39,030 nucleotides of DNA from a virus. Under the pieces are notes generated by a model. That model had not been told where the DNA came from, ran no database searches, and saw only the letters and a list, made by a program, of their open reading frames with translations. Of this stretch, positions 479-16,858 are shown piece by piece. Location: the UHGV virus genome UHGV-1520160. One strand, 5' to 3'. The position numbers and the translations under genes were made by a program. Position 1 is the stretch's first letter; each line of letters opens with the position of its first letter.

Positions 479-669
479 GCTTCACCGCCATCTGGGTTGG
501 ATGATTGACGGAAAATTGCTCGAGACGGCGACCAATCGCAATATGTATCAGTTTCGGTATGCCCGAAAATTGTCTTACAGCGGCGGATATGGGCGCAGTC
601 GCCGCAAGTCTTACCCTTCGGGAGTTTCATTTTGTCGGGGTCTGCCGGGTTATAATTCAGCTCAGTCAT
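475..669 (-). CDS. small Cys-rich (CxxC...C...C) protein, 64 aa; paralog of 9515..9709
   Basis: ORF 475..714 trimmed to the internal ATG at 669 where similarity to the 9515..9709 product begins (MTELNYNPADPDKMKLPKGKTCGDCAHIRRCKTIFGHTETDTYCDWSPSR vs ...LNYDPADPDKMRLPAGITCGNCHHIHRCKAIFGHTESNTYCDWSPSR). Confidence 0.5.
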   Translation of the reverse strand: MTELNYNPADPDKMKLPKGKTCGDCAHIRRCKTIFGHTETDTYCDWSPSRAIFRQSSNPDGGEA

Positions 670-1006
670 TCCAGGCCTCCAGCTCGTTCTGAATTTCCTC
701 GTCGATCTCGTCATTGGTGGCGTCTTCGTTTAGATAGTCGCGCGCCTCTTTGAGATACTGTTCTCGGCGTTCGTGGTACCAAGCAGAGAACTCCGGTGAC
801 CAGCCGCGACCATTACCTTGAAAATCAACCAGAGCGTTGTCCTCAGCCATACGCTCAACCATGCAGTCGGCAGTTGTCAGGGCGCATTCCCGGATGTAAC
901 CGCGAAGGTGGTGTTTGCGCCACCAAGGACTTACTTTCGAATCGCAACGTCCTTTGAACTCAATTTCCCAGCGGCGGATGCAGCGTGCGTTTAAAGATTT
1001 ACTCAT
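662..1006 (-). CDS. hypothetical protein (114 aa), acidic C-terminus
   Basis: ORF track; tightly packed in the minus-strand operon between the annealase gene and the Cys-rich gene. Confidence 0.4.
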   Translation of the reverse strand: MSKSLNARCIRRWEIEFKGRCDSKVSPWWRKHHLRGYIRECALTTADCMVERMAEDNALVDFQGNGRGWSPEFSAWYHERREQYLKEARDYLNEDATNDEIDEEIQNELEAWND

Positions 1007-1040
1007 CTCGTTACCGGGAGGGTTCGCCCTCCCGCCTCCC

Positions 1041-2132
1041 TTAGGCCACGTATTCCGGTTTCATATCCGCCAAGGTGATGCTGAACTGATCGTGCAGTTC
1101 GTCGCCCAGATGACGTTTTGCCGTTGCAAGAACTCGCTCAACTTCCCCAAACCGTTCAGCTGCATCCGGATCATCCGGAGACGGCAGGGAGTTTATCGCG
1201 GCTTCAACCTTGTTACGTGAATCAACCAGGTAGTAGCGCTTCACTGCCTTATTCTTCAGCTCGGTGAACAGGGCAGATCCGAGCGTGGCCTTCGCGCTTT
1301 CGATATCAGCACGCAGTGCTTTGGCGCTATCAACATCCTGTGCTGCCTCGATGCGCTCGCGGAAATCATCGGCAAGAGCGTCGATATTTACCGACGATTC
1401 GTGTGCGCTTTGCGTAGTTGTGACGGTGTCACCTGCGATTTCAGCAACGCTCATTCGTTGGGCTGAGCCAGGGTTAATAACTTTTTCTTCTCGTTCTTCG
1501 ACTTCATCGGCACTGTAAACACCAAGAATCACATCAGGGCAGTACAAGCGAGCCCAGCGCTTTACCGCGAGATAAGCGAGCTGCTGACGCGGATCACTTG
1601 CCCATAGTGTCGAATTACGAACCTGAGCCTGAGAAAGCATGAGTACCAGTTCGCGTGGCTCATCCTCGCCTTTCATCGTTGCCCACACACGAATTCCTAC
1701 ACCGGCCTCATCCTTTAAATCCCAACCGGGCGCGATGTACTTATTGCCTTTAGAACTGGTTCTCTCTACAAATCGACCAATGATGTTTTCCCATGGGCCA
1801 AACCAATCGTAATGAAGGCGATCTTTTGTAGGCGACATGTTGGTAACAACCGCATTAACCAGTTGAGCTTCGTAACCCAACACTCCGCTATTACCGACGA
1901 TGTGGGTCTTCTGAGCTACGGCAAAGGGGTCCATACCCCATCGTGCGGCCTGCATGACCACAGCCATGCAGGCATCTGGTTTTCCGCGGAAGTGGTCAGG
2001 TACAAAAGCGCCACTATTTGCCATCACTGTCGACAAGGTGCGTAGGCGGTCGAAAAGTTCCCCATTAGTCAAAATTGAGATGTTATCGATCATTTGCGTC
2101 TTGTTTTCGTTGGTAGTAATTGCAGTAGACAT
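1041..2132 (-). CDS. putative single-strand annealing recombinase (Bet/RecT superfamily), partner of RecE
   Basis: 363 aa ORF immediately downstream of the recE-like gene on the same strand. Segment ACMAVVMQAARWGMDPFAVAQKTHIV...GVLGYEAQLVNAVV resembles the lambda Bet core from memory. Family call is inferred, not searched. Confidence 0.5.
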   Translation of the reverse strand: MSTAITTNENKTQMIDNISILTNGELFDRLRTLSTVMANSGAFVPDHFRGKPDACMAVVMQAARWGMDPFAVAQKTHIVGNSGVLGYEAQLVNAVVTNMSPTKDRLHYDWFGPWENIIGRFVERTSSKGNKYIAPGWDLKDEAGVGIRVWATMKGEDEPRELVLMLSQAQVRNSTLWASDPRQQLAYLAVKRWARLYCPDVILGVYSADEVEEREEKVINPGSAQRMSVAEIAGDTVTTTQSAHESSVNIDALADDFRERIEAAQDVDSAKALRADIESAKATLGSALFTELKNKAVKRYYLVDSRNKVEAAINSLPSPDDPDAAERFGEVERVLATAKRHLGDELHDQFSITLADMKPEYVA

Positions 2133-2144
2133 GTTCTTTTCCCC

Positions 2145-5100
2145 TTATGCCTGAGTACGCAGCGCTTCAAGGCGGCGCAGGTCGAAGTCGTTCAGTTCGT
2201 CGGTGTAATCAGCGGTGATCGGCGCTGGCCATTCGCCAGTGTCAAAGCCGGTAGCGATAGCGCGCATCGCCTTGCGGTACTCGAGCATGCCCAGCTCTAG
2301 CAGTTCAGCGGATGCCTCGATGATGGCGATCCAGTGGTAGTTCTCGTCTTTGTTGACGAAAATCCAGAAGAACTGGTCAAGTGCCGCGGTCTCGCAATAC
2401 ATGGCGGCGCTCAGGTGATAGTCACGGTCGATGATTTCCCGGTGCAGTTTGGCGCGCAGACCTTCCTGCTTAATGTTCCACATGCTGATGGTTTTAAGGT
2501 CGGCACCGATGCGTACCCCGTCCAAGTCGATCTCAAGGTCAGGACGCACGCGGACTTCAAGTCCGGTTTCGTCGTCAAAGCCAAAATAGCTCACCTCAAC
2601 AGCGCGGCTCGGGTGCTGGAGTAGCATCCCGGCGGTTGGGTGCTGGAGCAGGGCTTTCTGAATGGCCAGTGCGGTGCACAGTTGCTGGCGGGTGACCAGA
2701 ACTTTTCCTTGCGGATTCTCACGCCAGGCATCCAGCAATTCGTCGGCGAAGACGGCGTCCGGATTAACAGACTTCACGGCCTGTATCAGGTCTGATTTGG
2801 TACCGGACACTTTCAGCGGTTGCGGCTTCTGCGCTTCCTGGGCCACCAGGTCAGGATTGATGATTGCCAGCTGCTCGAGTAACGCATCACGGCTACCGCT
2901 GGTTTTCACCTGTGCTGGCAGAGTGGCGTTGTATTCCTTGATGCAGGCTTTCATCGCCGCTGCGGTCTGCTTCTGGTCCGCTTCGATACGCTGATACTCT
3001 TCAGGAAGCGACATATAGCTCTGACCAGTTTCCTCGACTGAACCACCCAGCGGCACCTGTGCTGGCAGAGTGGCGTTGTATTCTTCGAGCAAGGCTTTGA
3101 TCTCATCTGCACTCAGCAGCGCTTGCAGACCTGCGTTGTAATCATCGATAAACGCGCGGATCGTTGCCGTCGTGGTGAATGCGCCTTCCGGAATTACCGG
3201 TTCAACGCTGAATTCCTCATCGAGCTGCTCTGGCTGCAACGCCAGTGCATGAACCAGGTTACCCATGTCCAGCACCGGAGAACGCTCTTTGGTGATCGTT
3301 TTGGCAACGTGGCGCGCGTTGAAGTACATCAGGCTAACGCGGGCATCTTTTACCTGCGTGCTGCTGATCCCGTTCGCTGCGTGATAAACCTCGTTCGGCA
3401 GACCTTCATAGCGACCTGGCTCGAAGTAAGCGGGGTAAACAACAGCTGGTTCGTCAGATTGGGCATCTGGCTCGGTTTGTGCCAAAACTGGTTCAGTCTG
3501 GTTTACAGAATCGCTATTTTGGGCGACAGAATCCGTATTCTGGTTTACATCGGCTTGCTGGCTGGTATCTGATTCTTCACCAGTTTCCATACTGCTTTTG
3601 CCTGACTGCACTTCAGTACCAGCCTGTTTTTCATCACTGACAGTTTCTTGAACCTGCACATTGCTGGTGGTCTCCGTAGCCTTTTTCGTGCCATGAGTAG
3701 CTGAGTTCTGCAGCAAAGCCGTAACGTCGAATATTCCGTTGCCGACATTTTTAACCAGTTCTTGTTCGACTTTCTGCGGTTGTGCCGCAGCTTCCTCTGC
3801 GCGGCGGCGTGCTCCTTCTTCACGCACGCGTTGCAGGTTCTCTTCGTGAGTGCAGAAGGATTTGCGCGGAGACTCCTTACTTTCAGGTTGGTGAATTTCC
3901 TGAGTTGCTACTTCAGCTTCATGCAACGGCAATAACTCAACCGCAGAGTTGAATTCAGCAGTCATGGTCTGGTTAACAAATTCCAGGTGAGCGACAGGGG
4001 TTAGATGAATATTTTCCGGCGCGATACGTACCAGGTTAAAAATAGCCGTGCGGTTAACGCCAAGAGCGCCAGGCTGATTGCGCAGAATGCTGCTCCATGA
4101 TTTCCACGGTTCTTCTTTTTTGGTCACGATTTCTTTGGCGCGACGAAGAATGCTGCCTGGGATCTCGAAGTGGTTGAAGTCCATAGGCAGAAGGGCACAG
4201 GCAATCTCTAAATCGAGAGTGTCCAGGGTGTGGTGTGCGTCAGGTCCACGGTCAGTGACGTAACCGCCGTTGGCATTGGTTCCGGAATCAGTACGCTGAA
4301 CACTACTGATGTGATTACCGGCAGCCCATTCACGCGCCAGGATGCCACGGTCAATGTAATCAGTAGCCGCCCACATTCTGGTGAAACGGAGTACCAGCGC
4401 GAGTTCGTGACGCTTGTCCTGGCTGAACACTTTGCGAATGGCATCGGTGTAGCGCCACAGGTCTTTGGTGTCGTAACCCTTCACTTCCGGGCAGTTCTCA
4501 GCAGCTAACAGCAAGTTCTGGACGTAACTGTTATCAGTGTCCATCTCCAGCGCGCCGATAGCTTCGTACTCTTCGCGGGTTACGTGGTGGCGCAGTTCGT
4601 CGGCGGTGAACTGGGAAAGCAGTTGCTTACGAAACGGCATCTGCACTACCGGGTAGAGGGTTGAGTCGTCGTCGTGTTCGTCCAGCGTGATGCCAGCGGT
4701 TTCTGGCAGCGTTGACTCAGTAGTTATGTGACTATCAACGGTCTGAGCCGTTTTCTCGTCAGAGTTTTCAGCTGTGACTTTTGGCAGCCAGGTGCGGTCA
4801 TCGTTCTGCAGTTCGTAGCGTTCGCACCAGGTGTAATCCACTGCGCCTTCTTCCGGCAGGTCGTCATATACCGGGAAATCGGTGCGGATTGGTTTGGCAT
4901 AATCTTTACCGCGGCCAGTTTCTTCAATTCCGGCTTCTTCCAGTGCCACATCGAGTTGGAGATTGGCGCGCGCTACACTTTTCGCAGTGAACCAAATCAC
5001 TGCATCTTTCTTGCCAGACTTCTGACTGGCTTTTATCAGATGGAAAAATTCCATGTGAGATCCTCTTTTTTGAGTGTTAGAATCCCCGGGCCAGAGATAG

Positions 5101-5159
5101 CGCCCATTGGATGTTTTTTGGTTTGGTATAAATTCCGGTGTAACTTTGGTCGGTGGCAC
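2145..5159 (-). CDS. recE: exodeoxyribonuclease VIII (RecE-like)
   Basis: 1004 aa. Recalled E. coli RecE similarity at N-terminus (DAVIWF...DFPVYDDLPEEGAVDYTWCERYELQ...DYIDRGILAREWAAGNHISSVQRTDSGTNANGGYVTDRG) and in the C-terminal nuclease region (YFEPGRYEGLPNEVYHAANGISSTQ...KTISMW). Confidence 0.8.
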   Translation of the reverse strand: MPPTKVTPEFIPNQKTSNGRYLWPGDSNTQKRGSHMEFFHLIKASQKSGKKDAVIWFTAKSVARANLQLDVALEEAGIEETGRGKDYAKPIRTDFPVYDDLPEEGAVDYTWCERYELQNDDRTWLPKVTAENSDEKTAQTVDSHITTESTLPETAGITLDEHDDDSTLYPVVQMPFRKQLLSQFTADELRHHVTREEYEAIGALEMDTDNSYVQNLLLAAENCPEVKGYDTKDLWRYTDAIRKVFSQDKRHELALVLRFTRMWAATDYIDRGILAREWAAGNHISSVQRTDSGTNANGGYVTDRGPDAHHTLDTLDLEIACALLPMDFNHFEIPGSILRRAKEIVTKKEEPWKSWSSILRNQPGALGVNRTAIFNLVRIAPENIHLTPVAHLEFVNQTMTAEFNSAVELLPLHEAEVATQEIHQPESKESPRKSFCTHEENLQRVREEGARRRAEEAAAQPQKVEQELVKNVGNGIFDVTALLQNSATHGTKKATETTSNVQVQETVSDEKQAGTEVQSGKSSMETGEESDTSQQADVNQNTDSVAQNSDSVNQTEPVLAQTEPDAQSDEPAVVYPAYFEPGRYEGLPNEVYHAANGISSTQVKDARVSLMYFNARHVAKTITKERSPVLDMGNLVHALALQPEQLDEEFSVEPVIPEGAFTTTATIRAFIDDYNAGLQALLSADEIKALLEEYNATLPAQVPLGGSVEETGQSYMSLPEEYQRIEADQKQTAAAMKACIKEYNATLPAQVKTSGSRDALLEQLAIINPDLVAQEAQKPQPLKVSGTKSDLIQAVKSVNPDAVFADELLDAWRENPQGKVLVTRQQLCTALAIQKALLQHPTAGMLLQHPSRAVEVSYFGFDDETGLEVRVRPDLEIDLDGVRIGADLKTISMWNIKQEGLRAKLHREIIDRDYHLSAAMYCETAALDQFFWIFVNKDENYHWIAIIEASAELLELGMLEYRKAMRAIATGFDTGEWPAPITADYTDELNDFDLRRLEALRTQA

Positions 5160-5192
5160 CGGACGTGAATCCCGCCTTGCGCGGGTTTTACG

Positions 5193-5354
5193 TTAGCCTT
5201 CGTGAGCCATCTGGTCGTGCGAAGCGCAACGTTTGGAGCAATACTCTTTTTCTTTGCGCGCCAGCTGTGAGCCGTTGCGATAGAGAAGGGTGCTCTTGAT
5301 TACTTCCTCCGTTTTAACCGGCTTGCCGCAATATCCGCATTTCTTGTCTAACAT
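5193..5354 (-). CDS. small zinc-ribbon protein (53 aa)
   Basis: Manual translation: MLDKKCGYCGKPVKTEEVIKSTLLYRNGSQLARKEKEYCSKRCASHDQMAHEG. Two Cys pairs (CxxC ... CxxxC), immediately upstream of recE in the same operon. Below the 60 aa cutoff of the ORF track. Confidence 0.4.
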   Translation of the reverse strand: MLDKKCGYCGKPVKTEEVIKSTLLYRNGSQLARKEKEYCSKRCASHDQMAHEG

Positions 5355-5365
5355 GACATCCTCCG

Positions 5366-5572
5366 CTAGTGGCTGAGTCCATGCCCCAGACCGTTCAGAT
5401 AAACTTCAACCAGCAAATCCTTGGTGTAAGTCATTTCTACGCCGCGATGCAGATACAAACGTCCGCGAGCGTTAGCTGATGCCGTCCAGGTTGAGTCTTT
5501 GTGTTTGACGAGCATCCCCGGCTGAACTGCGCCGCGGTTTACTGTCTGTGTACCGTAGTGCTGATGAACCAT
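5366..5572 (-). CDS. hypothetical protein (68 aa), first gene of leftward early operon
   Basis: ORF 5366..5716 trimmed to the ATG at 5572, which has a GGAG Shine-Dalgarno 7 nt upstream. The longer ORF begins with TTG at 5716 and has no SD. Confidence 0.35.
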   Translation of the reverse strand: MVHQHYGTQTVNRGAVQPGMLVKHKDSTWTASANARGRLYLHRGVEMTYTKDLLVEVYLNGLGHGLSH

Positions 5573-5591
5573 GATGTTCTCCAGTTTTTCT

Positions 5592-5676
5592 GAGTGAACT
5601 TCGCTGGTGGTGCCGCGGCGCTGATCTTCACGGTTGAGCGTTTTAACTCTGCAATTCACCACCGCGAAGCTCACTC
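5592..5676 (-). promoter_or_regulatory. long inverted repeat (about 20-bp arms, about 44-nt spacer) in the leader of the leftward early operon
   Basis: Arm 5592..5612 gagtgaacttcgctggtggtg against the reverse complement of 5657..5676 caccaccgcgaagctcactc; one mismatch and one indel. Confidence 0.35.
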
Positions 5677-5927
5677 TGTGCTTTGCCCTTGTCGCCAGGC
5701 TGGCGGAACGTTTCAAACCTACTGCGCGTTAATCTCACCACCTCATTCCGGTCTTCGTATGCCCCGGACGGCTACTTCGTGGGCTCCATGCCTGGGTGGT
5801 TCGTGGTGCGTCTTGGTGAGTTAGATTAAATCACTGGTTTATATATATGTCAACTTAAGGTTGGTGTTAATTGTAAATCTGAGGTTTATGTGGCTGGGTT
5901 TTGTGACACGTCTGCAGAATCGCAGGC

Positions 5928-6901: not shown

Positions 6902-7291
6902 TTAGGTTTGCTCACCTTGCGATCGAATCCGACCCTTCATGTACTTCTCGTACAGCTCATCTAACTCTTTCAGGCGAAGCGCAAAAATGCGGAGCATGTT
7001 CTGCTGCTCTTCTTCCGGTAACTGGCGGTAGAGCTCGAGCAAACGCTGTTCGTCCGGTTTGAGACCGTCTTTCTCCCCAACGTCTTCACCGAGTAGCCAG
7101 GCGACAGAAATACCAACAGCGTCGGCTATGGCCAGTGCCGATTTCTTACTAATCACGCCTTTTTTGAACCAGCCGTTTACGGCCTGAGGGGTGACTCCAG
7201 CTATTCTTGCCATGTCTGCTTTGGTAACGCCGCGATCAGTGATCTCAGTAAGGCGCTCCACCAGAACGAGGTTGGGTTCTTCTTTTCTCAT
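6902..7291 (-). CDS. prophage repressor, DicA/RacR-type HTH (XRE family), no S24 peptidase domain
   Basis: ORF 6902..7561 trimmed to the ATG at 7291 (MRKEEPNLVLVERLTEITDRGVTKADMARIAGVTPQAVNGWFKKG...). C-terminal LLELYRQLPEEEQ resembles the DicA C-terminal segment from memory. Divergent from a Cro-like gene. Confidence 0.7.
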   Translation of the reverse strand: MRKEEPNLVLVERLTEITDRGVTKADMARIAGVTPQAVNGWFKKGVISKKSALAIADAVGISVAWLLGEDVGEKDGLKPDEQRLLELYRQLPEEEQQNMLRIFALRLKELDELYEKYMKGRIRSQGEQT

Positions 7292-7393
7292 ATGGTCATT
7301 GTAAATATTTGGTTTATGCACGCAATAAATCCAAAGTTTGCATGAAGTATAAATCTGTGGTTTACTTCTGCTATCAATAAGCAGGAGAAGCAC
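7292..7393. promoter_or_regulatory. immunity-region intergenic: divergent promoters with repeated operator-like motif TAAAT-N5-GGTTTA
   Basis: gtaaatatttggtttatg at 7301..7318 and taaatctgtggtttac at 7350..7365; a third copy gtaaatctgaggtttatg at 5873..5890 lies upstream of the leftward operon. Confidence 0.5.
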
Positions 7394-7612
7394 ATGTCCG
7401 CACTCGATAAAGCAATTAAAGCCGCTGGCTCTGCCAGAAAGCTCAGCATCGCGCTTGGTGTGACGAGTATGTCTGTAAGTCATTGGAAGAATCGTGACCA
7501 AGGGATCGTCCCGCCAAGCTATATCTTCCCGATTTTCAAAATGACAGGCGTAACCCCCCACGAGCTGCGCCCTGATCTCTATCCAAATCCCACTGACGGA
7601 TTACCAAAGTAG
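7394..7612 (+). CDS. Cro-like HTH regulator (YdaS-type)
   Basis: 72 aa, HTH segment ARKLSIALGVTSMSVSHWKNR, conserved ELRPDL near the C-terminus; divergent from the repressor; RBS ggagaag upstream. Confidence 0.65.
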   Translation: MSALDKAIKAAGSARKLSIALGVTSMSVSHWKNRDQGIVPPSYIFPIFKMTGVTPHELRPDLYPNPTDGLPK

Positions 7613-13780: not shown

Positions 13781-13917
13781 CATTTGAATCCTGTTTTTCC
13801 GATCACCTCCGCGTTCGCTGGCAGCGGCTTCGCTTATACCACTTTCCCGGCTCTGTGCTAACGGACTACCGGATACTGAAGAATTACGTGAAAACTTATG
13901 CTGGAGAAGCGCTATGA
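13777..13917 (+). CDS. YlcG-like small protein (46 aa)
   Basis: Manual translation: [46 protein letters not shown]; overlaps the rusA stop and the Q start; conserved core [20 protein letters not shown]. Confidence 0.6.
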
Positions 13918-14729
13918 ACCTTGAAAACACAGTGAAATACCACTTCGCTAAATCCACACTGATTAGCGATTCTCCGCGCGCTACCGTCTCCGATTCACTG
14001 ACCGGTACCGACATAATGGCTGCCATGGGCATGACGCAGGAACGCGCCGCAATGGGTTACAGCGCCTTCCTCGGCAAGATGGGCATAAGCAATAACGACC
14101 GGGATCGGGCGATCGGTCTGCTGGCTGAGTACGCGATGACAAAATGCGACAAGGTTGCCGCACTGCGTAAGCTCGGTGCCGCGGTTAAACCTCAGGTGAT
14201 GCACCAGTTGGCCACCTTCGCTTTTGAGGACTATTCCCGCAGCGCTGCCAGCGTGAAGCAGTGCGATTGTTGTGACGGTCAGGGCTTCATTGAGGCTGAC
14301 GTGTTCACAATGAAATCTCATTATTCAATGAGGATTCCTCAATGGGCGAAAGAGCTTGGTCAGTCACCGAGTGATTTCGAGGTTAAACGACAGGTTCGAG
14401 AGGTGGTTCGAGTGCTGTGCTCGAACTGCAAGGGGAAGAAGGTTGTCAGTTGTGCCTGCAATGATTGCCGGGGACGTGGGAAAGCCGTAGACCAGAAGGA
14501 AACGAAGAAACAGGGGGTGCCGGTTATGACTGACTGCAAGCGCTGCGGCGGGCGTGGATATGAACGCATTCCTTCAACTGAGGCCCACGCAGCTATTTGC
14601 CAGATTACGGATGTAATCAGCCTGGATACGTGGAAGAAGTCCGTTAAACCGTTCTATGATCAGCTGATTACGAAATTCGATATTGAAGAGGCATGGGCAG
14701 AAAACCAACTGAAACAAATAACACGATAA
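13914..14729 (+). CDS. late-gene antitermination protein Q (phage 82 / QuuD-like, Cys-rich zinc-binding)
   Basis: 271 aa; position after rusA/ylcG and before the lysis genes; multiple Cys clusters (CDCCDGQG, CSNCKGKK, CACNDCRGRG, CKRCGGRG). Confidence 0.75.
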   Translation: MNLENTVKYHFAKSTLISDSPRATVSDSLTGTDIMAAMGMTQERAAMGYSAFLGKMGISNNDRDRAIGLLAEYAMTKCDKVAALRKLGAAVKPQVMHQLATFAFEDYSRSAASVKQCDCCDGQGFIEADVFTMKSHYSMRIPQWAKELGQSPSDFEVKRQVREVVRVLCSNCKGKKVVSCACNDCRGRGKAVDQKETKKQGVPVMTDCKRCGGRGYERIPSTEAHAAICQITDVISLDTWKKSVKPFYDQLITKFDIEEAWAENQLKQITR

Positions 14730-14734
14730 CGGCT

Positions 14735-14790
14735 ATGGAAGTTAATTCCAGCTATTTACTTTTCCCGAATCTGTGTTAATTTTATCCCAA
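14735..14790 (+). promoter_or_regulatory. probable late promoter (pR-prime-like) / Q-utilisation region
   Basis: Position immediately after Q; AT-rich with TTACTT and TAATTT hexamers; boundaries approximate. Confidence 0.3.
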
Positions 14791-14813
14791 CGATGGGTTA
14801 ATGCCTTCGTTTC

Positions 14814-14850
14814 AAGCCCCGCGGATAACACCGTGGGGCTTTTGCGTTTC
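14814..14850 (+). terminator. tR-prime-like terminator (hairpin plus T-rich tail) downstream of the late promoter
   Basis: aagccccgcgg-ataaca-ccgtggggctt followed by ttgcgtttc; a second GC hairpin ggcgagg-cgcta-cctcgcc lies at 14861..14880. Confidence 0.45.
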
Positions 14851-14886
14851 TGGAGGTAACGGCGAGGCGCTACCCTCGCCTTAACA

Positions 14887-15303
14887 TTAAGGGAGGGTTT
14901 TCATTACGCTATCAATCTCCCTTCCTTCAAATCTTGAAGTCCAGCCGCAGGAGCCGCAATGGTAAGGAAAGTCATCGAACCCGCTACCGACCTGTTTAAG
15001 ACAGTTGGGGCAATAAACCGCGCTGATATACCCACCCGCGGGATTTTTTCTAAAGGCCGCACCCATGTGCTCGACAAACTCATCCTTTGCCCGATAAGCC
15101 GCTATTTCCTTCTCAAGTTCTACGTTCTTGGCTTTCGCCTCGGCAAGTTCTGCTATGGTGGCAGCATGGGCTTTTTGAAGTACGTCGATCTGCTCTCCAA
15201 TGAAAGCGATGCGCTCGCGCAGGACCTCGTTACTTTGCACAGCAGAAAGCGCGCCGATCCCGTTTTTAAGGGACGCGATAAGTAATCCTACATCCATGGT
15301 CAT
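14887..15303 (-). CDS. coiled-coil protein with C-terminal zinc ribbon (138 aa), convergent to late transcription
   Basis: ORF track; heptad-rich middle (IAELAEAKAKNVELEKEIAAYRAKDEF), C-terminal CPNC...CGSC; ATGA coupling to the upstream 69 aa ORF. Confidence 0.5.
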   Translation of the reverse strand: MTMDVGLLIASLKNGIGALSAVQSNEVLRERIAFIGEQIDVLQKAHAATIAELAEAKAKNVELEKEIAAYRAKDEFVEHMGAAFRKNPAGGYISAVYCPNCLKQVGSGFDDFPYHCGSCGWTSRFEGREIDSVMKTLP

Positions 15304-15509
15304 TCCCTAATTGTCTGTGGAATGACCAATTTAGCAATTTCCTTTGTCTGTGGAAAGCAGGGAAACCACGCGCCGGGCGTGGATAAATATCCCGGTATTG
15401 AATCGACTGTTGGCTGCCGCTTGGCGGCCTTTTTCATTTCAGGCTCACGGGAATCATCCGCTACGTGCTTTGTTGATAAATCCAGCCCGTGAAGCCTGAG
15501 CCTTTTCAT
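15300..15509 (-). CDS. hypothetical small protein (69 aa), possible partner of 14887..15303
   Basis: ORF track; weak Shine-Dalgarno, so the start is uncertain. Confidence 0.3.
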   Translation of the reverse strand: MKRLRLHGLDLSTKHVADDSREPEMKKAAKRQPTVDSIPGYLSTPGAWFPCFPQTKEIAKLVIPQTIRE

Positions 15510-15547
15510 ACACGCACAGCGCCATCCGAAAAATCGGAGGTGAGGCT

Positions 15548-15826
15548 ATGACCAGAATGAGCACCATTTACAGCAGACTTTCATATGGAACAGGAACCAC
15601 GCTGACCGGCTGCGGTGTATCAGCGAAGGCATATGCCGAAACAGCTAAAACAGCAAAAGAGGTGTCCTGGATGTTGGCCGACAGAATTGCAGGGTTAAGC
15701 CTGAGCGACTGGGCAATTATTGTCGGTATCGCATGCACGGTAATCACCTGTGCAGTGAACTGGTATTTCCGCTGGAAAGAACGGGAGGATCGGCGCAATG
15801 GCTATGTCTCTAAAGCTGAAGAATAA
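15548..15826 (+). CDS. holin (class II / pinholin-like)
   Basis: 92 aa; hydrophobic helices (WAIIVGIACTVITCAVNWYF) followed by a charged tail (RWKEREDRRNGY); immediately upstream of the lysozyme. Confidence 0.65.
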   Translation: MTRMSTIYSRLSYGTGTTLTGCGVSAKAYAETAKTAKEVSWMLADRIAGLSLSDWAIIVGIACTVITCAVNWYFRWKEREDRRNGYVSKAEE

Positions 15827-16346
15827 ATTGAGCGCAGCGGTCGTTGGTTTGATTCTTGCCGGGGCTTCCGCACCCGTGATTCTCGATCAGTTTCTGGATG
15901 AGAAAGAGGGTAACAGCTTGACAGCATATCGCGACGGCGGCGGACTCTGGACCATTTGCCGTGGTGCAACAATGGTTGATGGCAAGCCAGTAGTACAGGG
16001 CATGAAGCTGTCAGCTGAGAAATGCGCCCAGGTAAACGCCATTGAACGCGACAAGGCGCTGGCGTGGGTTGACCGAAATATCAAAGTACCACTGACCGAA
16101 CCACAGAAAGCGGGTATCGCTTCTTTCTGCCCATATAACATCGGCCCCGGAAAATGTTTCCCGTCTACGTTCTATAAGCGAATTAATGCTGGCGATACGA
16201 AAGGAGCCTGTGAAGCTATCCGCTGGTGGATTAAAGACGGTGGCCGCGATTGCCGCCTGACCAAAGGCCAGAAGAATGGCTGCTATGGTCAGGTTGAGCG
16301 ACGGGACCAGGAAAGCGCGCTGGCGTGCTGGGGGTTAGACCAATGA
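15798..16346 (+). CDS. phage lysozyme (GH24 family) with N-terminal signal-anchor (SAR endolysin)
   Basis: Catalytic motif EKEGNSLTAYRDGGGLWTICRGAT (E...D...T of T4/P21-type lysozymes); N-terminal hydrophobic LSAAVVGLILAGASAPVIL; GGGAGG RBS. Confidence 0.8.
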   Translation: MAMSLKLKNKLSAAVVGLILAGASAPVILDQFLDEKEGNSLTAYRDGGGLWTICRGATMVDGKPVVQGMKLSAEKCAQVNAIERDKALAWVDRNIKVPLTEPQKAGIASFCPYNIGPGKCFPSTFYKRINAGDTKGACEAIRWWIKDGGRDCRLTKGQKNGCYGQVERRDQESALACWGLDQ

Positions 16347-16858
16347 AAATTAATCCGGGTCTTATAGGCGTTGTTGTTATTGCTGTCCTTTCGGTCGCTC
16401 TCGCTAAGAGTTGCTCCAACGCCAGTCGCCTTCAGAGCGATAACGACGTTCTGCGAAGTGACAACTCTATGCAGGGGCAGGTGATCGCCACCCAGGCATT
16501 CAACTTCAATCGATTCAATCAGGTTGCAGAACATGCCAACAGGCTAAACTCCCTGATCGACACCAGCACCGAAGAAACTGTAATCGAATACCGGGAGATT
16601 CTCCGCCGTGAAAAAACCTGTGATCTGCCTGTTCCTGCTGACATTGCTGGTGGGCTGCTCGAATACGCGTACCGTTTACGTTCCAGCGCAATGCACGCCG
16701 ATACCGACGGACCTGACGCAGCCGATGATAGTACCGCTGCCGCCGGCTCAATAACGTACTGCCAGGCTGTACTCTGGATTAAGCCGCTGCTGGCCGTGAT
16801 TGAAAAGGGCAATAACAATTTCGCTGGAATTCGTCAAATAGAGAGCGAGCGTCAATAG
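16343..16858 (+). CDS. Rz-like inner-membrane spanin
   Basis: ORF 16325..16858 trimmed to the ATG at 16343 (ATGA overlap with the lysozyme stop); N-terminal TM (LIGVVVIAVLSVALA) and coiled-coil body. Confidence 0.65.
   Translation: MKINPGLIGVVVIAVLSVALAKSCSNASRLQSDNDVLRSDNSMQGQVIATQAFNFNRFNQVAEHANRLNSLIDTSTEETVIEYREILRREKTCDLPVPADIAGGLLEYAYRLRSSAMHADTDGPDAADDSTAAAGSITYCQAVLWIKPLLAVIEKGNNNFAGIRQIESERQ
16608..16754 (+). CDS. Rz1-like outer-membrane lipoprotein spanin embedded in Rz (+1 frame)
   Basis: Manual translation from GTG at 16608: (M)KKPVICLFLLTLLVGCSNTRTVYVPAQCTPIPTDLTQPMIVPLPPAQ; lipobox LVGC and Pro-rich mature part; GGGAG 10 nt upstream. Confidence 0.6.
   Translation: MKKPVICLFLLTLLVGCSNTRTVYVPAQCTPIPTDLTQPMIVPLPPAQ

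Follow-up and report, generated by a model that had tools for sequence, protein, structure and literature searches.

A minus-strand gene with a sieB-type promoter and a sas-like element between the antiterminator Q and holin genes of a lambdoid phage genome

The window analysed here is the whole 39,030-nucleotide (nt) virus genome UHGV-1520160, which has the layout of a lambdoid prophage or phage. Genes of the pL side (recE, recT and others) occupy the minus strand at ~660-5700, a cI-like gene lies at 6902-7561, and the plus strand carries in order the replication and nin genes, RusA, Q, the lysis genes (15548-16858) and the genes from terminase to tail. Our subject is the interval between the gene for antiterminator Q (13914-14729, plus strand, 271 amino acids (aa); PF03589, E 2.7e-46; phrog_127, E 3.6e-106) and the holin gene that opens the lysis cassette (15548-15826, plus strand; PF16080, E 1.7e-11; phrog_20). 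A first-pass annotation of the sequence had noticed a gap of ∼0.8 kb between these genes, and it measures 818 bp (14730-15547) with both flanking families as named. We found that it holds a single minus-strand gene, for a 136-aa protein, behind a promoter and an overlapping opposite-strand element homologous to the sieB promoter and the sas antisense RNA of phages P22 and lambda. The interval is 100% identical to that of phage HK225 and 98.5% identical to that of phage Louie; the adjoining Q gene is just 93.6% identical to the Q gene of HK225. The G+C content of the cassette (0.49-0.51) does not deviate from that of its flanks in the base composition of 14750-15350, and GC skew is negative across the same stretch, which fits the expectation for a minus-strand gene.

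The gene for the 136-aa protein lies at 14887-15297 on the minus strand. The first-pass annotation had used a longer version of this open reading frame (ORF), 14887-15303 (138 aa), which begins two codons upstream. All homologues begin with MD at the second ATG (15297), as does the annotated HK225 protein, so comparison of the sequences makes 15297 the most likely start and 136 aa the most likely length of the product. The remainder of the earlier description, a coiled-coil protein ending in a zinc ribbon, was borne out: a long predicted helix is followed by CPNC...CGSC, and the four cysteines are invariant across the family, whose motif reads VLRER ... EFVEHRGALFKRKPxGGY..VYCPxC...C..C.W..F. 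We identified 66 homologues with 58-96% identity in the Enterobacterales and in Vibrio, nearly all of 136-138 aa, and a profile search returned 455 cluster representatives at E≤1e-3 (clusters at 50% identity). Among relatives of at least 94% identity the polymorphic sites in the ORF were synonymous in 29 cases and non-synonymous in 12, and were spread over the three codon positions as 8, 6 and 27, the third position thus taking 27 of 41. Judged by this substitution pattern, the large minus-strand ORF is a real gene under purifying selection. The AlphaFold model (predicted local distance difference test score, pLDDT, 87.7) has helices at residues 5-22 and 26-74, a beta-rich four-cysteine zinc ribbon at 76-126 and a C-terminal helix. 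The profile and structure search that the first-pass annotation had proposed thus produced a zinc-ribbon model and no characterised family. Searches of Pfam, PHROG and NCBIfam returned only phrog_1244, a family of unknown function, together with generic coiled-coil noise; a PADLOC v2 scan gave no match at E≤10; and we obtained neither a profile match nor a convincing fold superposition to coiled-coil zinc-finger proteins of the DksA/TraR or HP0958/CT398 type. Just past the stop codon, the minus strand carries the hairpin GGCGAGG-N6-CCTCGCC (14861-14880), which probably serves as a 3' end or as a stabiliser; a U tract is lacking, and our terminator scan of the interval called no terminator on this strand.

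Upstream of this gene the first-pass annotation had placed a second one, a 69-codon frame (15300-15509, minus strand) that overlaps the 138-aa ORF by ATGA, and had read the two as translationally coupled. Only the large ORF proved to be a gene. In the same set of relatives the 69-codon frame has 3 synonymous and 20 non-synonymous polymorphic sites, distributed over the codon positions as 7, 10 and 6 with no third-position excess. In relatives with the same leader, the frame that ends at the same stop runs for 9, 32, 45, 69, 71, 72, 91 or 112 codons and opens with ATG, GTG or TTG. Apparent database homologues of its product cover only 35-52% of it and vary in length; these partial matches reflect conserved non-coding DNA. 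HK225 annotates a single coding sequence in the cassette, and in the NCBI annotation of ten E. coli copies one protein name stands under the match. The frame overlies the promoter/sas element, a terminator and the lysis leader described below, and on the strength of these sequence comparisons we conclude that it is not a gene and that the DNA beneath it is regulatory. The ATGA overlap consequently joins a non-gene to a codon that is probably not a start. The first-pass annotation had named loss of the frame in close relatives as a reason to abandon its genes, and the 69-codon frame, with no coding signature and a variable length, is such a case.

The regulatory DNA in question includes the leader of the 136-aa gene, which aligns with the regions upstream of sieB in P22 and lambda. 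The sieB-type promoter and short 5' untranslated region occupy 15298-15356 on the minus strand. The −35 element TTTCCA (15356-51) is separated by a 17-nt spacer from an extended −10 element, TGcTAAATT (hexamer TAAATT, 15333-28); the transcript is predicted to start near 15321-15323, some 25-30 nt before the ORF, and a Shine-Dalgarno (SD) sequence, AGGGA, precedes the ATG at 15297. In the P22 record BK000583 the annotated sieB promoter, transcript start and ATG all map inside the element, and by this alignment the promoter is a homologue of that of P22 sieB, which has been mapped experimentally. When 22 diverse copies are compared, the −10 hexamer is invariant at positions 1, 2 and 6 (TAnnnT) and at no other. 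The stretch 15300-15547, used as the query of a distant DNA search, yielded matches of two kinds. Those of the first, over 15333-15411, fell in intergenic DNA of the pL operons of HK639, Edno5 and a P22-like phage, each time directly upstream of a gene on the opposite strand. In HK639 and Edno5 this gene is an unannotated zinc-ribbon ORF of 70-73 aa; in the P22-like phage it is sieB. The other kind of match concerns the lysis leader and is described below.

On the opposite strand, and overlapping the promoter, lies an element of ∼110 nt homologous to the P22/lambda sieB promoter with its overlapping sas. A covariance model of it gave a single match in the window, at 15292-15399 on the plus strand (100.6 bits), comprising hairpins A and B and helices C and D, and together with a profile hidden Markov model it detected 33 copies of the element among the loci that we collected. 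The P22 sas antisense RNA is 127 nt long and was recovered by small-RNA sequencing (PMC13397905, Table 2); it covers precisely this homologous stretch, which begins opposite the start codon and extends across the promoter to its far side. P22 needs this RNA because SieB otherwise aborts the phage's own lytic growth (PMC12197685). Hairpins A and B have similar loops, which explains the “direct repeat” TTGTCTGTGGAA, and helices C and D overlap in the arrangement that an H-type pseudoknot would have. One other copy, for instance, builds the stem of hairpin A from AAUUCAAUC/GAUUGAAUU, where the window has GGUCAUUCC/GGAAUGACC. The helices persist with different sequences, there being 12 distinct C stems and 6 distinct D stems, and mean stem lengths of 5.7 bp (C) and 5.2 bp (D) were observed as against 3.4 and 3.0 bp in shuffles. 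These stem counts come from a helix-anchored extraction with shuffle controls and not from a curated structural alignment; column-based counting of covariation on MAFFT and covariance-model alignments was dropped because helix C is offset by one column between subtypes. Despite strong divergence of the element within lineages that have the 136-aa gene, compensatory changes have preserved all of its helices.

Several observations bear on which strand is structured. In 26 of 29 distinct copies the sas orientation gives hairpins A and B the greater stability (−17.0 vs −13.0 kcal/mol), and they contain 92 G-U pairs in that orientation as against 44 in the other. Hairpin B and helices C and D lie upstream of the mRNA start and so cannot act in the mRNA. 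The element with its adjacent terminator (15292-15440) folds with z = −2.28. We take this as good evidence from sequence, though not proof, that the sas strand is under selection for RNA structure. We considered as a candidate a hairpin in the mRNA that would sequester the SD sequence, and rejected it: the greater part of the full 9-bp hairpin falls upstream of the point where transcription is predicted to begin, the leader alone is not significantly structured, and the antisense RNA accounts for the hairpin better. We also rejected the idea that the cargo genes contain a promoter dedicated to the antisense RNA, since the various cargo genes share no conserved sigma-70 promoter upstream of the element, a result that fits an RNA derived from a long lytic transcript. 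For all but two of the 33 copies the flanking genes are predominantly on the sas strand, in the majority of cases clearly, so that the cassettes form antisense islands. The two set aside in this count are a copy without long flanking ORFs and one, in a tandem pair, with balanced flanks.

The lytic transcript that would cross the present copy can be assigned to the late promoter pR' (14755-14794, plus strand), which we located by column-by-column alignment with lambda, Louie, mEp237 and Gifsy-2. The roles of the lambda pR' elements are established; their counterparts here are a −35 element TTTACT (14755-60), an extended −10 element TGtTAATTT (hexamer 14777-82), a predicted +1 near 14789 and a pause-type element AACGAT (14789-94). 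The initial transcribed region CAACGATGGGTTAAT is conserved in the alignment with lambda, and right after the lambda-type Q of Louie the sequence is identical to lambda pR' (TTGACT-17-TAAATT, then AACGATGGGTTAAT). The terminator tR' follows on the same strand as an 11-bp G+C-rich hairpin (14814-14841) followed by TTTTGCGTTT, with the T tract reaching 14850. It was found by the terminator scan, is annotated as a rho-independent terminator in HK225, where it is 100% identical, and is kept in mEp237 and Louie. Counted from the predicted start, RNA terminated at tR' would be only ∼60 nt long. The first-pass annotation had put a late promoter and a tR'-like terminator in the gap and listed two candidate hairpins; the promoter and the hairpin with T tract at 14814-14850 hold, and the one at 14861-14880 belongs to the 3' end of the cargo gene. 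By the alignment pR' and tR' lie immediately 3' of Q, so that Q-modified late transcription must cross the cassette in antisense, as had been proposed. We also observed that the pause-region sequence CAACGATGGGTTAAT is common to phages with different Q families. Louie fuses a lambda-type Q and the lambda pR' −35/−10 elements to the short-leader/tR' version found in the window, with the recombination joint inside the −10 region (window 14768; 3001 in our Louie locus, L002).

The limits of the exchangeable minus-strand cargo cassette, or moron, follow from mEp237. This phage has the same Q family and shares the left flank to 14859 and the right flank from 15426, with a different plus-strand gene in between, which places the cargo at 14860-15425; the hairpin 14861-14880 falls in the part missing from mEp237. 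In Louie this cassette is flanked by another Q and another holin, and in IMG/VR relatives it accompanies several Q alleles; its orientation is invariably opposite to that of Q and holin. Thus it is present, absent or exchanged between conserved flanks, as expected of a moron; a promoter of its own is predicted by homology, and its 3' hairpin is the one without a U tract described above. That the Q-to-holin interval is a classic cargo site, as the first-pass annotation stated, is confirmed by the other content it has in mEp237, Gifsy-2, Klebsiella phages and Citrobacter phage Chris1. Gifsy-2 carries minus-strand STM1025 and gtgA in the slot, Chris1 (locus L105, 243-677) an antisense uspF gene for universal stress protein F, and the Klebsiella phages (loci L102 and L106, 438-765) four-tRNA arrays (Asn, Phe, Thr, Arg). 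A weak, sub-threshold Rfam match to RsmY (26 bits) at 2078-2187 of the Gifsy-2 locus (L007) coincides with an evident short terminated pR' transcript (CCAACGATGGGTTAT... plus terminator); the family assignment is false, yet it marks the pR' short RNA.

The right edge of the slot is formed by a second intrinsic terminator on the plus strand (15412-15440), GGCTGCC-GCTT-GGCGGCC followed by TTTTTCATTT, which was called in the terminator scan; mEp237 and other phages have a different hairpin sequence with the same T tract at this position. It runs into a conserved leader of the lysis cassette (15426-15547, plus strand), which emerged from the consensus fold and from the distant DNA search, where 15412-15547 matched 57 phage records and lay directly upstream of the first lysis gene in those inspected. 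A long stem (15439-51/15486-99) is followed by CCTTTT, and a hairpin (15522-28/15535-42) covers the SD sequence of the holin gene. The consensus fold has 28 pairs, 8 of them with compensatory changes, and this ∼120-nt leader, seen also at our loci L003, L007 and L102-L106, precedes different holin families and accompanies different upstream cargo. It may serve as a multi-terminator and translational gate for the lysis genes.

The promoter/sas module itself is found in front of several different cargo genes. Behind it we identified SieB (P22, lambda), the 136-aa family, whose sequence is unlike the SieB proteins, a group of 164-171-aa coiled-coil/zinc-ribbon proteins (HK629 gp43, HK446_037 and an ORF of a Klebsiella phage), zinc-ribbon proteins of 65-73 aa, and other small ORFs including SfII_36. 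The 164-171-aa proteins match the 136-aa family in profile-profile comparison with both cysteine pairs aligned (probability 83%, E 9e-6), a score that may be inflated by coiled-coil composition. The unannotated zinc-ribbon ORFs of HK639 (∼2241-2460 of locus L004, minus strand, 73 aa) and Edno5 (2246-2458 of locus L005, minus strand, 70 aa) have the cysteine pairs CPDC/CPNC ... CADC/CASC; the opposite-strand genes HK639_45 and Edno5 gp50, which overlap them, may be mis-calls. Two IMG/VR contigs (L066, 1601-2208, and L067, 3370-4012) have two sas-type cassettes in tandem, ∼500 bp apart, in which the 136-aa gene is accompanied by a second cargo of 84 or 65 aa, the 65-aa product being a small cysteine-rich protein.

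The 136-aa family occurs in several genomic contexts. Copies of at least 95% identity lie between Q and holin, and those at 88-89% identity follow the lysozyme gene, in antisense. Copies from Citrobacter, Vibrio and Morganella (66-72%) lie where sieB classically does, between cI and kil/gam/recT and in antisense to pL. Wherever neighbours could be identified the homologue was antisense to them. A Salmonella homologue with 82% identity (L098/L099, 3043-3914) lies 2 nt after a 151-aa Arc-domain gene, in an operon. This pair is divergent from a 55-aa gene and a Bro-N gene and lies antisense inside a tail-gene cluster, a layout that by analogy resembles the lysogen-expressed immI region of P22 (mnt/arc/ant). 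Homologues at other places in their phages are preceded by a second conserved leader, unrelated to the sas type, which we term type B (…CTGATCTTTTATCAGGAT…CCAGGTTAGGCTG…, with a short palindrome; loci L034-L049, L057, L060 and L064); in four of these the gene follows the lysozyme gene. In E. coli the cassette is present in 10 of 5,426 complete genomes.

Taken together, these data lead us to consider it probable, by analogy with SieB, that the cassette is a single-gene moron expressed by the prophage, silenced by a sas-type RNA during lytic growth, and encoding an exclusion or abortive-infection effector. Transcription from a constitutive minus-strand promoter of the sigma-70 type would yield an mRNA with a ∼25-nt leader that encodes the coiled-coil/zinc-ribbon protein. 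In the lysogen, pR' transcripts would end at tR' (14850), and any leak at the second terminator (15440) and in the lysis leader; with these transcripts stopped, the gene could be expressed with little interference. Upon induction, Q-modified polymerase would pass the terminators and transcribe the whole cassette in antisense. The final ∼110 nt of this antisense sequence are a homologue of P22 sas, its first hairpin complementary to the leader, SD sequence and start codon of the mRNA; the remaining hairpin and the pseudoknot-like helices, which lie opposite promoter DNA, would stabilise the RNA. Once processed, such an RNA may block translation of the resident gene as in P22, sparing the phage's own lytic growth (self-immunity) while the protein acts, by analogy with SieB, as an exclusion or abortive-infection effector against other phages. 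That the sas device has been retained with compensatory changes where the 136-aa gene is present points to a product that, like SieB, would damage the lytic growth of its own phage, and hence to an exclusion or abortive-infection role. The first-pass annotation had likewise envisaged expression in the lysogen and silencing at induction. This pattern gains support from the sieB promoter/sas homology, but the likely silencer would be a structured antisense RNA and not merely transcriptional interference.

A number of findings weigh against this interpretation. Many members of the 136-aa family have leaders without a sas element (type B, or the operon with an Arc-like gene), so antisense control is not obligatory for the protein. 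The protein has no match in PADLOC, Pfam, NCBIfam or the PDB, and the argument for an anti-phage role therefore draws on position and regulation only. It has no similarity to SieB and, in the model, no transmembrane segment. There is no conserved in-frame internal start like that of Esc, the homologues having no conserved internal methionine, so the “translational switch” of P22 cannot apply literally. The mRNA leader alone is not significantly structured (z −0.27), and the covariation counts use related sequences that are not independent events. A strict-consensus promoter scan found nothing, because the −35 element of the sieB-type promoter is weak, and minus-strand expression in this phage is something that we infer only from sequence.

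The principal competing explanation accepts the same architecture and takes the product to be a regulator or host-modulating factor, for instance a zinc ribbon that binds nucleic acid or RNA polymerase, which supports lysogeny and is turned off at induction since it would disturb lytic expression. A conserved basic FRK/FKRK motif beside the ribbon, the Salmonella operon with an Arc-domain repressor opposite a Bro-N gene, and the position of the gene next to cI in many prophages all speak for such a role; the lack of significant similarity to DNA-binding or DksA/TraR-type families, and the fact that the shared module is otherwise known only for an exclusion gene, speak against it, and we regard it as rather unlikely. 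It is improbable that the cassette is instead an inert passenger, its sas-like element inherited with the promoter and functionless, and its gene expressed in all states or hardly at all. Its rarity in complete E. coli genomes and the family members that lack the element would accord with this. Against it stand the compensatory changes by which the strongly diverged element has preserved every helix in lineages with the 136-aa gene, the purifying selection on the protein, and the orientation rule, which nearly all copies obey.

Two further explanations concern the DNA upstream of the 136-aa gene. A translationally coupled minus-strand operon of two genes (69 and 138 aa), silenced only by collision with late transcription, can appeal to the uninterrupted 69-codon frame with its ATGA overlap in the window, HK225 and Louie, and to the gene called there in Louie. 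Besides the substitution pattern, the frame lengths (9-112 aa) in relatives with an intact 136-aa gene and the start of the large-ORF homologues at the second ATG, the position of the frame argues against it. The N-terminal half of the frame coincides with the lysis leader and terminator, sequences that phages without the cassette conserve as well, and its C-terminal half lies on the sieB-type promoter and thus upstream of the transcription start; we consider such an operon very improbable. Scarcely credible in our view is the proposal that 15357-15434 on the plus strand is a trans-acting small RNA like IsrK, with its own promoter and terminator, that regulates the lysis leader. IsrK regulates orf45-anrP in Gifsy-1 and is likewise located downstream of an antiterminator Q gene (PMC4825925), and a weak Rfam match (21.2 bits, E 0.013-0.057) ends at the 15412-15440 terminator. 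However, its score is far under the gathering threshold of RF01394 (50), one of the three hairpins of the model is unmatched, a larger search, with the identical Louie locus among its targets, failed to return the match, no promoter was found upstream, and the much stronger sas homology accounts for the same bases.

If the cassette is indeed a sas-silenced prophage effector gene, the P22 sieB/sas mechanism, known for 30 years, would be a reusable cassette with at least six unrelated cargo genes, one that has moved from the early-left operon into the late operon. We suggest tentatively, and with less confidence than we place in our account of the present locus, that the sieB promoter and sas form a portable “lysogen-on, lytic-off” switch for many effectors, and that the 136-aa and 164-171-aa proteins represent a new, widespread class of exclusion or abortive-infection effectors that need antisense self-immunity. 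In the literature that we searched there was no account of the sieB promoter/sas as a portable module with many cargos, of the 136-aa family or of HK225 gp66. If our account is right, the covariance model would provide a sequence handle for genes that are expressed only in the lysogen and must be silenced for replication, and so a marker-based route to new prophage defence genes; the 455 clusters (50% identity), which have no Pfam domain, would be nominated as candidate anti-phage effectors. Annotation is corrected as well: the 69-codon frame is not a gene, and ORFs of this kind that have been called over the promoter/sas element of other genomes are likely to be spurious.

The closest known system is the superinfection-exclusion cassette sieB-esc-sas of P22 and lambda, reportedly described by Ranade and Poteete in 1993. 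A summary is given in PMC12197685. The window shares with it a homologous promoter and leader, a likewise homologous antisense element of ∼110 nt reaching from the start codon into promoter DNA, a compact organisation with a predicted promoter of its own, and a gene that is antisense inside an antiterminated, lytic-only operon. A SieB-homologous product with an in-frame Esc is the component that it lacks: the cargo here is predicted to be a soluble coiled coil with a zinc ribbon whereas SieB is a membrane protein, and there is no internal start of the Esc type. The cassette here also lies in the late operon, from tR' to the lysis leader, whereas sieB lies in the pL operon, and the exclusion phenotype of P22 and lambda is putative in our case. 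The 164-171-aa proteins (HK629 gp43, HK446_037 and HK620 gp16-like) follow the same module in the same antisense position, and have a coiled coil, a short beta segment and CxxC...CxxC in the same order, but they are longer and show only ∼14% identity to the 136-aa family.

Among the morons of the Q-to-S interval, the Stx genes and gtgA/STM1025 of Gifsy-2 resemble the cassette in being variable cargo between conserved flanks downstream of pR'/tR'; the nmpC and lc porin genes of DLP12 and PA-2 are further cargo of this interval. The Gifsy-2 genes and uspF of Chris1 also share its orientation opposite to late transcription, whereas the Stx genes are co-directional and need Q read-through for their expression. 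The Gifsy-2 and mEp237 loci differ in having no match to the sas-type element with the covariance model. BstA-aba, which has neither a sequence relationship to the 136-aa gene nor a PADLOC match with it, offers a parallel in design. As described in PMC8585504, it too combines an anti-phage gene expressed by the prophage with a cis-encoded device that spares the phage's own lytic cycle; that device is a DNA element (aba) and the protein is of KilA-N type, whereas the corresponding device here would be an antisense RNA.

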